Source of the DNA: Candidatus Hermodarchaeota archaeon
GTDB taxonomy: Archaea > Asgardarchaeota > Thorarchaeia > Thorarchaeales > Thorarchaeaceae
Direction: 5' to 3'
NCBI GenBank assembly: GCA_048885865.1
Contig: JBHLLF010000059.1
Span: 1 to 14,102 of the forward strand
Length of the DNA: 14,102 bases
Shown here: piece by piece, positions 1 through 13,772 of the stretch
How positions within the stretch are numbered: the first letter of the stretch is position 1
Layout of the letters: the number at the start of each line of letters is the position of its first letter
The notes under the pieces: generated by a model
What the model was told of the DNA's origin: nothing
The model's input: the letters and a program-made list of their open reading frames with translations, nothing else
Databases searched by the model: none
Program-made: the position numbers and the translations under genes

Positions 1-10
1 TTCTATCGGA

Positions 11-248
11 GACCACACCCCCAACAAACTACTGGGTGGCAGGTCGGAGTCCAGCAAGTGCCATCTGTTCTGTAGGGACCTGCTTCGAGTGACTGTGGCC
101 GCACAGCCACCGCCTGATACGGGAGGCATGGACGATTCCATGACGATCACATATCCATTCGACCCGACCCGGTTGTGACCCAACTAGGGTCTTTTCTGAA
201 GCAGGTGCCTTCACGCCTACTGGGGCTGGCTAGGAACTGCTAGCCCCA
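11..248 (-). ncRNA. Candidate structured non-coding RNA of unknown class (multibranch, ~220-240 nt visible, may extend past the window edge)
   Basis: No credible ORF in six frames. About 57% GC, higher than the other intergenic stretches. Nested complementary segments (+ coordinates): 12-22/222-230, 23-28/64-69, 29-35/51-57, 72-76/216-220, 78-86/198-206 (9 bp perfect), 89-97/102-110, 112-115/124-127, 128-132/154-158, 166-170/187-191, 172-175/181-184. Most in-helix mismatches are A.C on + and therefore G.U on -. Folded by eye only. Confidence 0.6.
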
Positions 249-325
249 TTCCAAGGTTTTCAAAGCGAATTGTCTAGCAGAACATTCAAAACTAGGTTCG
301 AGGGACACATCAGACTAGAGTGCAC

Positions 326-338: not shown

Positions 339-1889
339 ATGAGCAAGAAAGACAAGTTTGAGCGGCTTGCCAAGATGCGTGAAGAAGCCAAACTCGGCGG
401 TGGAGAAGATCGTATCAAGAAACAGCACGAGAAGGGCAAGTACACGGCGAGGGAACGCATTGAGAAGCTGCTTGACCAGGGCTCGTTTGTAGAGATCGAT
501 GAGTTTGTGGTTCATCGGGAAACCGCTTTTGGCATGGATGAGAAGCAGGTCTTGGGTGACGGAGTCATCACTGGATATGGGACGATTGACGGCCGAAAGG
601 TCTTCATCTTCAGTCAGGACTTCACAGTTTTCGGTGGCTCATTGGCCGAGATGTATGGTGACAAGATTGTCAAGGTCATGGAGATGGCAATGGATGCTGG
701 TGCTCCCTGCATTGGCCTGAATGACAGCGGCGGTGCTCGCATACAAGAAGGTGTCAAGTCACTCGTTTCGTACTGCAACATTTTCAGACTGAATACCTGG
801 GCAAGTGGTGTGATTCCGCAAATCAGTGCGATTCTAGGTCCTTGTGCAGGTGGCGCTGTCTATAGCCCTGCTGTAACTGATTTCACATTGATGGTCAAGG
901 GCACCTCTCACATGTTTATCACTGGCCCTGAAGTCATCAAGACTGTTACGGGTGAAGAGGTCACCTTTGAAGAGCTCGGAGGTGCAATGACCCACAACAG
1001 TGTAAGTGGCGTTGCTCAATTTGCCAGCGAGGATGAGGACCACTGTTTCGAGCAAATACGCAAGCTCCTCAGCTTCATCCCAAGCAACAACTTAGAGGAT
1101 CCTCCCAGAGTGATGAGCGACTGTTCACCTGATGACATAGATGAGTCAATTGACGACATAGTTCCTGATGACCCCAACAAGCCCTATGACATGCGTGATG
1201 TGGTGACAAGGGTTGTGGATAATGGAGATTTCTTTGAGGTCCATGAGCATTGGGCGAAAAACATGATTGTGGGCTTTGCTCGGGTGGATGGTCGCTCAAT
1301 AGGGATTGTTGGGAACCAGCCTGCTCACCTGGCTGGCACTCTAGACATCAACGCGTCAGATAAGCTCGCCAGATTCGTTCGTTTCTGTGATGCTTTCAAC
1401 ATTCCAGTCATAACATTCATGGATGTCCCTGGATATCTACCTGGAACTGCACAAGAATGGGGCGGTATAATCCGTCATGGTGCGAAAATACTCTATGCTT
1501 TTGCAGAAGCCACAGTACCGAAAATCACGATAATCACTCGAAAGGGGTATGGAGGCGCCTTCGACGTAATGTCATCAAGACATATCGGTGCTGACTTGGT
1601 CTATGCTTGGCCCACTGCAGAGATTGCAGTTATGGGGCCAGATGGAGCGATTAACATCATCTTCCGCAAAGAGATTGAAAAGGCAAAGAACAAGGAGAAG
1701 AAACGCGAAGAGCTTGTGAAAGAATATCGGGAGAGATTTGCCAATCCGTATATCGCCGCAGGATTGGGCTACATTGACAAGGTAATCTTTCCATACGAAA
1801 CTCGATCATTAATCTGCAAGGGATTGGATGTTCTAGCAAGTAAAAGGCAGAGCAGACCACCCAAGAAACATGGGAATATGCCTCTTTAA
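339..1889 (+). CDS. pccB: Acyl-CoA carboxylase carboxyltransferase subunit (propionyl-CoA carboxylase beta / methylmalonyl-CoA decarboxylase alpha family), 516 aa
   Basis: Family motifs [85 protein letters not shown] and C-terminal KKHGNMPL. Direction (carboxylase or decarboxylase) cannot be determined from sequence. Confidence 0.95.
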
Positions 1890-1919: not shown

Positions 1920-2056
1920 GTTTAACGAATCTCATGGAGAAACTTATAGACTCACACTTCTGCTCCTTTCCGTCTTGGGAAAAAGCTAAAGAACAGTCTT
2001 GCTTTCAGATTTGACAGAGGAGCGCCACAGCACCTGTCATGATTGGAGGTGGGAAC

Positions 2057-3667
2057 TTGAAGGCCAAAGGTTTGATTGGAATCTCTTTTGCAATCATTGT
2101 CTTGCTCCTGGTCACCACTCCGATCACTGCAAGTGAAAATGGCGAAACGTACATCGCTAGATTACTACCAAGTTTGGCAAGAGATTCTTCTGCTCTGCCA
2201 AGCACCTTAATTGAGGAAAGCAACAGTCCTAGAATTGCAGTCGTAAAACCAATCTTCACAGCCACTGCCTATTCATATGCCTTCTATCAATTCTATAGCA
2301 AGTACATATCAAGTACGCAACCTTTCATCACCACTGACCTCCATTACCTCAATGTGACAGTGAAGGATGGGTGGGGATGGAGCAACCGGTTGAACAAATT
2401 CCTCAGCAGTTTCAAAGCAGAGAGTGCAGGTCTATCCCTTGGCGAAACCTTCGCACTCATTGATGAAATTGATGTATTAAATGGCGCATTATTCAATGAG
2501 GAAGAACGAGTCTATGATGTAGTGATTCTTGGATTCACCGAATATGTCACTCTCGAAGAATACTATTACTACAAAAGATTCGTTGAAACCGGGGGCACTC
2601 TAATCATAATGGATGCATGCAATTTTCTGGCCGAAGTGAAATATTATCCTCCAACAACACCTGGCGAACCAGGGTACCTCAGCTTGGTCAAGGGCCATGG
2701 ATGGGAGTTCAATGGAACTCATGCTTGGAAATCGGTGTATCACCGGTGGCCTGAGGAGAACAGGAATTGGATTGGCAGCAACTATTGGAGATGGTGGACA
2801 GGGAAACACTATGACTTTTTCCAAGCCAACACAACCCATCCAATCAGCGTCTACATCAGGAATAGCTATGGACCAGAAACCAATACGCACTACAAGGGAC
2901 ATGAAGAGAACAAGCTGGAGAATCTCACAGGAACTGAAATTATTGGATACTGGCATTTCATAAATCCTGAGGAGGCGCCTACGGATCCAGTGGTTGCATA
3001 CCAGCACAGATACAGAAATGGAAGTGTGTTTCACACCGGCATAATGGCAAGTGATGTCATCGATATCCAGGAGTTCTTGCAGGCATTCCTCATAAGTGCG
3101 GTAAGAATGGGTCTGTATGGCGAAGTGGGAGATTGGACCTTCTGGGAGGACTCATCATTTGAGTCTTCAACCAAGATGTTATACGAAAATGGAACTCAAA
3201 TACCACAAGAGGGATGCATTTCCGGAGTAATTACTTTCCTAGTGACTTTTGACACAAATATCATTGCTCGAAATCAGAAACCATACCTTCTGAGTGATGT
3301 GCATGTTCGCATCTATCATCTGGATTCTAATTCATCATCCGAATCGACAACTGTTGCGGGTCGGATTTTGCGTAGAAATCCTCTCAATTGGAGCATCGAG
3401 ATAAACACATGCAATCTTACTGATGCAAGATATGTGTTTGAAATCGGTTGCAGGTTCATATTTTCGTCCGATGAGTTGGATTATGTTGATTCGATTCTTA
3501 TGGTCGCAATACACGAAGTGGATAACATCGATGATGACGTAGTAGATAGCACCGATGATGAGATCTTGAAAGGGTTCTACCTGACTCTTGGATCACTTGG
3601 CACAGTTCTGGCTTTTATTTGCGTATATATTGTCTTGAGCAGCAGGGTCACTCCAAATCCTGGGTAG
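2057..3667 (+). CDS. Secreted, C-terminally membrane-anchored glycoprotein with an N,N-dimethylformamidase beta-subunit-like domain
   Basis: GGAGGTG (2045-2051) precedes TTG 2057. N-terminus is basic then hydrophobic (KAKGLIGISFAIIVLLLVTTPITA). Nine N-x-S/T sequons, an acidic linker and a C-terminal TM helix (GFYLTLGSLGTVLAFICVYIVL). The segments IAVVKPIFTATAY, YDVVILGFTEYVT..EY...KRFVETGGTLI and LVKGHGWEFNG..AWKSV resemble, from memory, archaeal DMFase-like domain proteins. The ORF is secure; the domain call is moderate. Confidence 0.7.
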   Translation: MKAKGLIGISFAIIVLLLVTTPITASENGETYIARLLPSLARDSSALPSTLIEESNSPRIAVVKPIFTATAYSYAFYQFYSKYISSTQPFITTDLHYLNVTVKDGWGWSNRLNKFLSSFKAESAGLSLGETFALIDEIDVLNGALFNEEERVYDVVILGFTEYVTLEEYYYYKRFVETGGTLIIMDACNFLAEVKYYPPTTPGEPGYLSLVKGHGWEFNGTHAWKSVYHRWPEENRNWIGSNYWRWWTGKHYDFFQANTTHPISVYIRNSYGPETNTHYKGHEENKLENLTGTEIIGYWHFINPEEAPTDPVVAYQHRYRNGSVFHTGIMASDVIDIQEFLQAFLISAVRMGLYGEVGDWTFWEDSSFESSTKMLYENGTQIPQEGCISGVITFLVTFDTNIIARNQKPYLLSDVHVRIYHLDSNSSSESTTVAGRILRRNPLNWSIEINTCNLTDARYVFEIGCRFIFSSDELDYVDSILMVAIHEVDNIDDDVVDSTDDEILKGFYLTLGSLGTVLAFICVYIVLSSRVTPNPG

Positions 3668-3733: not shown

Positions 3734-5362
3734 CTAAGATTTATTCCTCGGAAGCATGATTACCATGCTTGCACCCTGCTGATGATCCCCATCGACGCGG
3801 TCCTCAACCCATATTCGTCCGCCATACCGGTTAATGATGCGGCGAACTAGAGTGAGGCCCAAGCCACTTCCACGTCTCTCTCTATCTCCAAACCGTGCGA
3901 GAATTGCCTTCTTCAGAGTATCATTAATTCCCGGTCCCCTGTCTTGGACTCTTATAGCGAGAAAGCTCTCTCCTTCTTTGTCATCTGCAATGACATCGAT
4001 GACAATGATGTCATTCGTGTCCATTCTGGCGGCATTGTGAAGCAGATTATAGAACACATCAACCAGAAACTCATCAGCCATTACTGAATATTGCTCCTCA
4101 CCAAAGTTGATGTTGATTCTGATGTTTAACGACGGGTATGAATCCTTGACCATGTCAATTGCTTCAGTGAGCGCTAGATATGGATCCGCTGGAACCAGCT
4201 CGGACTCTTCTCCAAGCGCCGCCAGTTTCTTAACATTGGTCACTAATTTTGCCCCTCTCTGAGTCTGTGCCAGCGCCGACTTTGCTAGGGATTCCAATTC
4301 CTCAGAAAGGCTGCCGCTATCAAGCATCAGCTCCATGCTTGACATGATTCCCTGTTGGAGATTGGATATGTCATGAGCCATCAGGTCATTGTAGAACGCA
4401 GCTGTCGCCACAGCTTCCTCCAACTGGCGTTCCGTCCTTTTCCTCTCTGTGATGTCACGAGCAATGCCTAGTATTCCAATTGGCTTATCCTTGTTATCCC
4501 GAAGAAACGCCCGCGATATTTCAGTCCAGAATCTTGACCCGTCCTTGTGAAGGAATTCAAGCTCAAGTGGTGGTGCATCATAACCTTCTTTTCCAACTTC
4601 CTCTTCAAGTCTAAGCGTTTCAGCAAGAGTCTCTTGAGTTATCTCAATTGTATCTTTGGGCATTATTGAAGTGACACTTTTGCCTATGAGCTCCTCAGGT
4701 TTGTACCCAAGTACTGTTTCACTCGCCGGGCTAATATATGTCACTTTAAGATTCAGGTCTGTTGTCCATATGACATCCTTTGCACTCTCTGCCAACAAAC
4801 GTAATCTCTGTTCATTTGAGCGTAGAGCTTCTTGTGCCAAATGTCTTGCCAGAACTGTCGAGAGCATTCTTGCTATTATCTGGAACAAGGTTCTGTCTTG
4901 TTCTGATAGATCTTTCCTCTTTCGAGCTGCAATATTCAGGACACCAAGAAGCTCCTCGTTGGGTCCAAGTATCGGCCAGAATATTAATGCCTGAATTCCC
5001 ATTTGGTCCAAGACGGCTTTTCGCGGCTTCAAAATTGAGCTACTCTGAATGTCTGATTCAAAGATTGGCTTCTTTGTGCGAGCAACATGTGCAGCGAGAT
5101 ATTCCTGATCATCTAGAGGCACTTCACTTCGCGTGCCAGCAGGGATGCCAACGACTGCATGCAATTTCAGTATTTGATTTACATCATCATAGAGTCTAAT
5201 GGTTCCAAGGTCAAAACCCAGAATCTCGACTAATCCTGATATTATCCTGTGACTTGTTGCCTGTGTATAGGTCTGTTCTAGCGCCGTTTCCGCAATTAGC
5301 TGGAGTGCCATTCGCTCCCGCTCAAATGCATCTCTCGCCTTGGTGGACTCAGGTTCGTCCAT
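3734..5362 (-). CDS. Soluble GAF-PAS sensor histidine kinase
   Basis: GAF (GTIRLYD...LKLHAVVG...PILGPNEELLGVLNIA), PAS/PAC (YISPASETVLGYKPEELIGK...HKDGSRFW...GIARDITERK), H box DLMAHDISN, N box VFYNLLHNA, G1 DRGPGI, G2 GSGLGL. SD-like GGAGTGA at 5376-5370. Start is ATG 5362 or TTG 5365. Confidence 0.93.
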   Translation of the reverse strand: MDEPESTKARDAFERERMALQLIAETALEQTYTQATSHRIISGLVEILGFDLGTIRLYDDVNQILKLHAVVGIPAGTRSEVPLDDQEYLAAHVARTKKPIFESDIQSSSILKPRKAVLDQMGIQALIFWPILGPNEELLGVLNIAARKRKDLSEQDRTLFQIIARMLSTVLARHLAQEALRSNEQRLRLLAESAKDVIWTTDLNLKVTYISPASETVLGYKPEELIGKSVTSIMPKDTIEITQETLAETLRLEEEVGKEGYDAPPLELEFLHKDGSRFWTEISRAFLRDNKDKPIGILGIARDITERKRTERQLEEAVATAAFYNDLMAHDISNLQQGIMSSMELMLDSGSLSEELESLAKSALAQTQRGAKLVTNVKKLAALGEESELVPADPYLALTEAIDMVKDSYPSLNIRININFGEEQYSVMADEFLVDVFYNLLHNAARMDTNDIIVIDVIADDKEGESFLAIRVQDRGPGINDTLKKAILARFGDRERRGSGLGLTLVRRIINRYGGRIWVEDRVDGDHQQGASMVIMLPRNKS

Positions 5363-13340: not shown

Positions 13341-13772
13341 TTATTTCATGCGCTTCTTCTCTTCCCTCTGAACCTTCCACAAAATACGCATGAATAGCTG
13401 ATTCAAGACTCTGCGCCACTCAGTTTCTCCTTGCGTCAAATTCTTCCCTTTCATAACCTCCTTGTGCAATTTCTCCAGGTCGTTTCCTGCTCGGTCAATA
13501 ATATCTATGGCTTTTTTGCTAGCTTCAGCTTCGGTTGCATCTTCAAGAATGGCCAGCATCCTGTTCTTCATCATGTTCCAGTCTATCCCAGGGCCAATTG
13601 AGATTATGGGACCAGAAATAATCAGAACCTTCAAGCTGTCCACTTCCTTTCTCCAGGGCTGGAGTGCTTTGGAAGTGATTACTTCTGGCAGGAAGAGAAT
13701 GAAATAATCAGAAAGAGAATCTACTGCTGATACGAAGGATTTGCTTTCATGAAACTCTTTCATCCCACACAT
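13341..13772 (-). CDS. Hypothetical protein, 143 aa, largely helical/charged
   Basis: Uninterrupted ORF filling the gap, with its own TATA box about 23 nt upstream of the ATG. No family recognised. Confidence 0.75.
   Translation of the reverse strand: MCGMKEFHESKSFVSAVDSLSDYFILFLPEVITSKALQPWRKEVDSLKVLIISGPIISIGPGIDWNMMKNRMLAILEDATEAEASKKAIDIIDRAGNDLEKLHKEVMKGKNLTQGETEWRRVLNQLFMRILWKVQREEKKRMK

Follow-up and report, generated by a model that had tools for sequence, protein, structure and literature searches.

A probable plus-strand non-coding RNA descended from a broken RadA/Rad51-like gene in one Thorarchaeota subclade

The window, a stretch of 14,102 nucleotides of an Asgard archaeal genome, opens with a GC-rich intergenic region (58% GC against 46% genome-wide, which bears out the enrichment noted in a preliminary description of the same letters) ahead of a PccB-type carboxyltransferase gene. 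Contig C59 starts where the window does. Contig C6 (127 kb), the left neighbour of the window, when reverse-complemented closes with window bases 1-77, letter for letter. The contig start and the exact 77-nt overlap show that the assembly broke inside a structured element, whose first 63 nt are missing from the window; C6 (locus L009) supplies its left flank. Negative coordinates are positions on the joined C6 and C59 sequence. The exact overlap also indicates that the assembly branched inside the element, possibly through a co-occurring relative sharing those 77 bases. Homology among the copies of the element stops near position 251, and its features are collected in the table.

Features of the element and related sequences, with positions counted from base 1 of the window
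Feature	Position	Strand	Remarks
Structured element, whole	about -62..248 (~311 nt); within window 1..248	+	start on C6, L009:1-141, minus strand
Domain I, 3' half: long interrupted rod	1..71 (rod -62 to 71)	+	
Domain I, closing helix	-62..-53 with 62-71	+	old start codon at -55 buried inside
Domain I, further helices	-42..-10 with 30-60	+	
Domain I, inner hairpin	-6..-1 with 8-13	+	
Domain I, C-rich unpaired stretch	14-29	+	
Domain II, multibranch junction	74..210	+	closed by 74-87 with 197-210
Most conserved core	90..146	+	79% invariant columns; hairpins 90-109, 110-126, 127-142
Domain II, fourth arm	161..191	+	interrupted hairpin, variable loop
Domain III, terminal 10-bp hairpin	221..248	+	stem 98% paired, one two-sided change
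Pyrimidine-rich tail	249..264	+	likely 3' end, by analogy with archaeal U-rich terminators
77-codon open frame, 3' part	2..178	+	ATG at -55; not a conserved protein
RadA-like remnant, piece 1	-46..145 (window 1..145)	+	frame of window:2; profile positions 11-79, E 2.8e-10
RadA-like remnant, piece 2	166..222	+	frame of window:1; profile positions 123-141, E 0.007
PccB-type carboxyltransferase gene	339..1889	+	downstream neighbour, not part of element
Accessory RadA-like copies	L048:4195-5046; L049 near 4460-5300; L008:1500-1700; L050; L152-L154		

The element is single-copy and its locus is fixed, always between a short band-7 (SPFH) gene and the carboxyltransferase gene, with varied inserts on both sides. 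We found it in each of the six genomes with the adjacent short band-7 gene and on eight further metagenome contigs, the homologous contigs being labelled Thorarchaeota or Promethearchaeota. Across five genomes of the same genus a block from about -73 to 251 is 84-94% identical. When we searched 86 genomes of the family and 151 of the phylum with the element's own covariance model, only the six genomes of the subclade gave the element (6/86 of the family, one genus); as many of the surveyed genomes are incomplete, this means not found rather than absent. The same model also gave weak matches to accessory RadA-like genes.

Both flanks of the element have been swapped between genomes. On the left, a gene for a 334-aa predicted membrane-anchored protein with no Pfam match (L009:256-1260, about -1182..-178, minus strand) separates the element from the band-7 gene in this genome; G013 and L118 have related inserts, and the other genomes are without it. 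On the right, an insertion hot spot downstream of 251 and before the carboxyltransferase gene is occupied in L002, L053, L088 and L116 by an HNH-like gene (by motif), genes for an HTH and a peptide-binding protein, and an acetyltransferase. Gene replacement is suggested by the carboxyltransferase tree, which is at odds with the band-7 tree, and by the low identity (73%) of the G010 copy. Further downstream in the window, the ORFs at 2039-3667 (+, 542 aa) and 13341-13772 (-, 143 aa) have no Pfam match, and the product of the former opens with a signal-peptide-like stretch.

Insertion of different genes directly to the left and right of the element could mean that it acts as DNA, as a single-stranded hairpin or as a protein-binding or recombination site at the hot spot, and the wobble pairs of the fold fit this too, G.T being tolerated in DNA hairpins. 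A DNA-level role is nevertheless very improbable: the element is present once, at one locus, with no recombinase next to it, a search of viral contigs, phages and plasmids gave no match, and the conserved spacing of a TATA-like box described below points to transcription. The same single copy, fixed locus and lack of viral, phage or plasmid matches led us to reject a mobile-element RNA (omega-RNA, group II intron or MITE), one of the options left by the preliminary description. Its other option was a pre-rRNA leader; we looked for an rRNA gene to the left and there is none.

Read on the plus strand, the full-length element folds into three domains, a long rod, a multibranch junction and a terminal hairpin. 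All 13 full-length copies gave fold z-scores from -3.0 to -7.3, whereas intact and accessory RadA-like genes ranged from +1.6 to -2.9 and 60 random genome windows all stayed short of -3. On the minus strand ten of the 13 copies lay between -0.4 and -2.0, and three between -3.4 and -4.9. The alignment fold had an energy of -92.6 on the plus strand versus -73.4 on the minus strand, and z-scores against column shuffles of -8.7 and -5.9, respectively. In the plus-strand consensus 97% of cells are paired and nine two-sided pair changes were counted, a number reached in 1 of 500 shuffles; the 12 related sequences used for scoring had also served to build the structure, and the count is of observed pair variants, not of events on a tree. 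Covariation support for this fold is modest, and because most of domain II is invariant the counts say nothing on its pairs. Held-out copies fit the model (73 of 75 pairs in L089, 85 of 85 in this genome). A strand-neutral comparison of G.U with A.C variants favoured the plus strand in 11 of 12 references, with significance in only one. None of the eight columns of the domain III loop is invariant, yet its stem is maintained, and an 18-19-nt hairpin module after domain I is present or absent as one unit among the copies.

The preliminary description had read the stretch in the window as a minus-strand RNA divergent from the carboxyltransferase gene, with an outer helix enclosing a long arm with four hairpins and a second domain (69-23). 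A full pair listing located every helix it quoted, and its minus-strand G.U pairs at 92/107, 27/65, 29/57 and 31/55 are in the sequence. The fold z-score that it proposed as a check was weak for the stretch as given (-1.35 on minus, -1.54 on plus). The strand did not hold up: the minus-strand structure has two two-sided pairs, a count matched or exceeded in 413 of 500 shuffles, and the element is better read on plus, the same strand as the carboxyltransferase gene. The outer helix of the description finds no support as the closing helix. The second domain is an artefact of the incomplete copy (75-79% of cells paired in homologues), since bases 30-71 pair with upstream sequence once the 63 nt are restored. 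Within the long arm the central helix 78-86/198-206 is conserved and the helix 220-216/72-76 is only 68% paired; of the four hairpins, 89-110, 112-127 and 166-191 are conserved, and 158-128 lacks half its strand in four homologues. The central helix and the three conserved hairpins are Watson-Crick paired and thus readable on either strand.

A minus-strand structured RNA, perhaps antisense to the old gene, could draw on this two-way reading, on the invariant minus-strand G.U at 92/107 and on the three copies that fold well on minus. We consider it very improbable given the absence of covariation, the weaker alignment fold and the poor z-scores of the other ten copies; furthermore, the TATA-like sequence that had been proposed at 264-257 is not conserved among homologues.

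We found that the distant DNA matches of the element are the 5' ends of RadA/Rad51-like genes, on the plus strand. The intact relative in G014 matches Pfam Rad51 (PF08423, E 1e-12), does not reach the cut-offs set for RadA, RadB, Rad51 and Dmc1, and shows no Walker A motif when aligned to Pyrococcus RadA. The frame in the window is 47% identical to this gene (E 8e-6). A profile built from 30 intact paralogues matched two pieces of the element. Piece 1 carries an 18-nt deletion after the HLF motif. Piece 2 follows an internal deletion and a frameshift; its match is weak alone (E 0.003-0.07 in homologues, no significant match in pairwise BLAST), and the two pieces are colinear in all copies. A nucleotide tree groups the copies of the element (100%) within the clade of accessory genes (100%), as sister to a broken copy in G003 (92%). 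The profile matches and the tree together identify the block as what is left of the 5' portion of an accessory RadA-like gene, with deletions inside it. Its closest relatives, whether intact or broken, are all in other contexts, and no intact parent was found at the locus of the element. A core copy of the family is present in nearly every genome of the family and is intact in this genome (contig C2).

Parts of the fold can be traced in these relatives. Hairpin 90-109 pre-exists in accessory genes at 7/7 pairs and the closing helix at 7-9 of 10, while helices 110-126 and 127-142 and parts of the rod are weaker or absent in intact and accessory genes. Judged from these comparisons, the fold is partly inherited from the gene and partly gained.

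The 77-codon frame that survives in the window raises the possibility of a small protein of 77 aa made from the RadA-like N-terminus. Eight copies keep the frame open and share its start and stop, and pairwise dN/dS is about 0.45 by a simple NG86 count. A small protein is nevertheless the least probable of the readings and we rejected it: variants are spread evenly over the codon positions (49/55/57, p 0.72), four-fold sites of the element diverge at about the rate of first and second positions, against a several-fold excess in neighbouring genes, the remaining homologues have frameshifted ORFs of 62-116 aa, and the start codon lies inside a 10-bp helix. Codon-like conservation, which the preliminary description had named as a sign against an RNA, was thus looked for and codon periodicity is absent. 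By these measures the element is no longer protein-coding; "non-coding", as the stretch had been called, is right for the present day, but the stretch is the remnant of a plus-strand protein gene.

We compared the divergence of the element with that of its surroundings. Between pairs of copies the median is 0.17 for the element and 0.49 for four-fold sites in the band-7 gene next to it; relative to this genome the element differs by 7-20% and neighbouring four-fold sites mostly by 26-69%. The exception is the closest genome, G015, in which the element is no more conserved than other intergenic stretches. These other stretches also lie below four-fold divergence, mostly at 0.11-0.29, and because intergenic DNA is generally slow the margin of the element is nearer twofold over ordinary intergenic DNA than the about threefold seen over synonymous sites. 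Element distances correlate with band-7 distances (rho 0.76) and the trees largely agree. A recombination test within the element was negative (p 0.88), and with the element tree following the band-7 gene, recombination is unsupported as a cause of the low divergence.

The slow pace of intergenic DNA leaves room for a functionless pseudogene that decays slowly or is homogenised by recombination, with a fold partly inherited and partly due to chance. Such a reading fits the frequent breakage of accessory RadA-like copies in the genus, the helices that pre-exist in them (one accessory fragment reaches z -2.9) and the swapping of both flanks between genomes. We regard it as quite improbable, since the 57-nt core keeps its invariance even though the neighbours differ at about half of their four-fold sites, loops vary while stems hold, the tree tracks the band-7 gene with no sign of recombination, and the element accompanies the adjacent short band-7 gene in every genome that has it.

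No member of Rfam 15 matched the window or the full-length homologues at gathering or E-value thresholds (best on a full-length homologue 13.9 bits, E over 3), and the preliminary view of an undescribed, constrained, multibranch structured element was upheld. RNase P RNA (RF00373), which had already been set aside, is excluded by the lack of a match and by the true gene on contig C4 (162.6 bits). Archaeal SRP RNA (RF01857), likewise set aside earlier, gave no model match, and four of the five relatives that carry the element have their SRP RNA elsewhere. In this genome (an 87% complete assembly) SRP RNA was not found; 19 tRNAs were called, with tRNA-Sec on contig C4. A box C/D sRNA was rejected because the C-like motif at 140-146 is altered in three of 14 copies and the D-like motif at 196-199 in two; both are partly within conserved helices. 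A hammerhead ribozyme was rejected too: a CUGANGA-like word occurs in only some copies, the GAAA partner is absent and Rfam gave no match. Like SRP and RNase P RNA, the element is helical, about 300 nt long and single-copy, with a promoter of its own (predicted for the element). Unlike them, it matches no model and is limited to one subclade.

A TATA-like box, TTCTTAW, lies 30-31 nt upstream of the first helix in 14 of 14 sequences and survives replacement of the upstream DNA, which has happened in this genome. The box and a G-rich motif preceding it stand at about the same distance as in the accessory RadA-like copies. Given the usual archaeal spacing between TATA box and start, transcription would begin near the first nucleotide of the rod, about -62, and would run to about 250. 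Three wetland RNA libraries and one probable DNA run yielded unstranded contigs that reach 193-223 at depth 2-5, short of the terminal hairpin; the RNA-library contigs span 1-217, and DNA is a possible source of them.

The usual downstream genes, for the carboxyltransferase and the peptide-binding protein, are on the same strand as the element, and we considered whether it might be a riboswitch-like cis leader or attenuator in which the C-rich 13-21 would pair, as the RNA is being transcribed, with the 5' strand of the terminal hairpin (222-229), switch termination and so control read-through into the downstream gene. This complementarity is found in most copies (97% of cells). G016 (L107:124-265) retains only the 3' part, about 175-251, with its hairpins, after the end of an unrelated gene and ahead of the carboxyltransferase gene. 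A leader is improbable all the same: the downstream neighbour varies, and the carboxyltransferase gene has its own conserved upstream block (about 272-338) with an SD-like GAGGTG at 326-331. The long-range helix shows no two-sided change and is broken in L116, where the terminal hairpin is kept, and part of the C-run is deleted in three copies. Covariance models of riboswitch families gave no match.

On balance we favour a stand-alone plus-strand ncRNA of ~311 nt, exapted from the 5' part of an accessory Walker-A-less RadA/Rad51-like gene in one Thorarchaeota subclade; that the plus strand yields a functional RNA at all is quite likely. The preliminary description had seen a real element, with the wrong strand, on an incomplete copy, and had missed its origin from a RadA-like gene. 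In the mechanism that we propose, the plus strand would be transcribed from the promoter inherited from the parent gene, the rod of domain I would bury the old start codon and so leave the RNA untranslated, and the RNA would end at the terminal hairpin, which would protect its 3' end. The nearly invariant core would be recognised by sequence and shape, and the RNA would act in trans within the regulon of its parent, like OxyS; protein binding, as decoy or scaffold, would be the most likely mode, and base-pairing regulation the other. The trans-acting, protein-binding mechanism in particular is a tentative proposal, possible rather than probable. A target or protein partner did not emerge from our searches of the genome: the antisense search gave 28 exact 13-mers, none in the RadA-like core gene, and a motif search with the G-rich word before the TATA box gave seven uninformative matches and no regulon. 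A bolder reading, which we think unlikely, sees an RNA of several domains, born within one Asgard genus from a RadA-like frame, whose core (90-146) is catalytic or binds a ligand in a sequence-specific way, with most of its helices made by point changes in codons still legible today, and perhaps regulating the DNA-repair paralogue family of its parent.

The homology to a protein gene on its coding strand, the loss of coding and the retained parental promoter region, as predicted, are the marks of a gene-derived ncRNA. On this reading the element would be of a known kind, with a narrow distribution in one uncultured subclade. Gene-derived sRNAs have been described in enterobacteria: OxyS, a bacterial sRNA, goes back to a peroxidase mRNA; StyR-3 arose at the 5' end of an MBL-fold hydrolase gene that decayed but left its regulatory site in place (PMC8825220). 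The element resembles both as an ncRNA from a decayed protein gene, on the coding strand, with the promoter region of the parent kept, and StyR-3 is the closest known system, given its origin from a 5' end. It differs from both in being archaeal (Asgard), in its three domains with a multibranch junction and in an old frame that is still legible over about 65 codons, and it is about 311 nt long where OxyS has about 110 nt. Compared with a Walker-A-less RadA/Rad51-like paralogue, start and promoter spacing match the accessory copies, but the element is truncated, internally deleted and frameshifted and has lost the codon pattern. A non-exhaustive search of the literature gave neither a gene-derived ncRNA of this sort in Asgard archaea nor a description of the element.

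Large structured RNAs seldom have a source that can still be recognised, and how they originate is an open question for that reason. For this element the parent family, a broken sister (in G003) and 14 descendant copies are known, so that what was inherited and what was gained can be asked helix by helix. This broken but kept gene may illustrate the way in which a dead gene gives rise to a structured RNA; on the bolder reading above, it would offer a dated, step-by-step record of the birth of a complex RNA fold from readable codons.

Some observations concern the relatives of the element. The accessory RadA-like clade of the genus is found in unrelated contexts and its members are mostly broken or truncated, only the G014 copy being intact. 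The broken G003 copy abuts sequence (L008 about 1250-1450) whose end matches the 3' ends of tRNAs in many genomes, possibly an intron-containing tRNA, which ARAGORN did not call. The core RadA-like gene has a conserved G-run ahead of its TATA-like box, and positions 16-23 in the C-rich stretch of the element are complementary to eight bases of this run, which may be chance. The core gene itself, which also lacks Walker A (L059:1486-2292, contig C2), lies near Cdc6/Orc1-like and glycine-cleavage-H-like genes, as identified by inspection.
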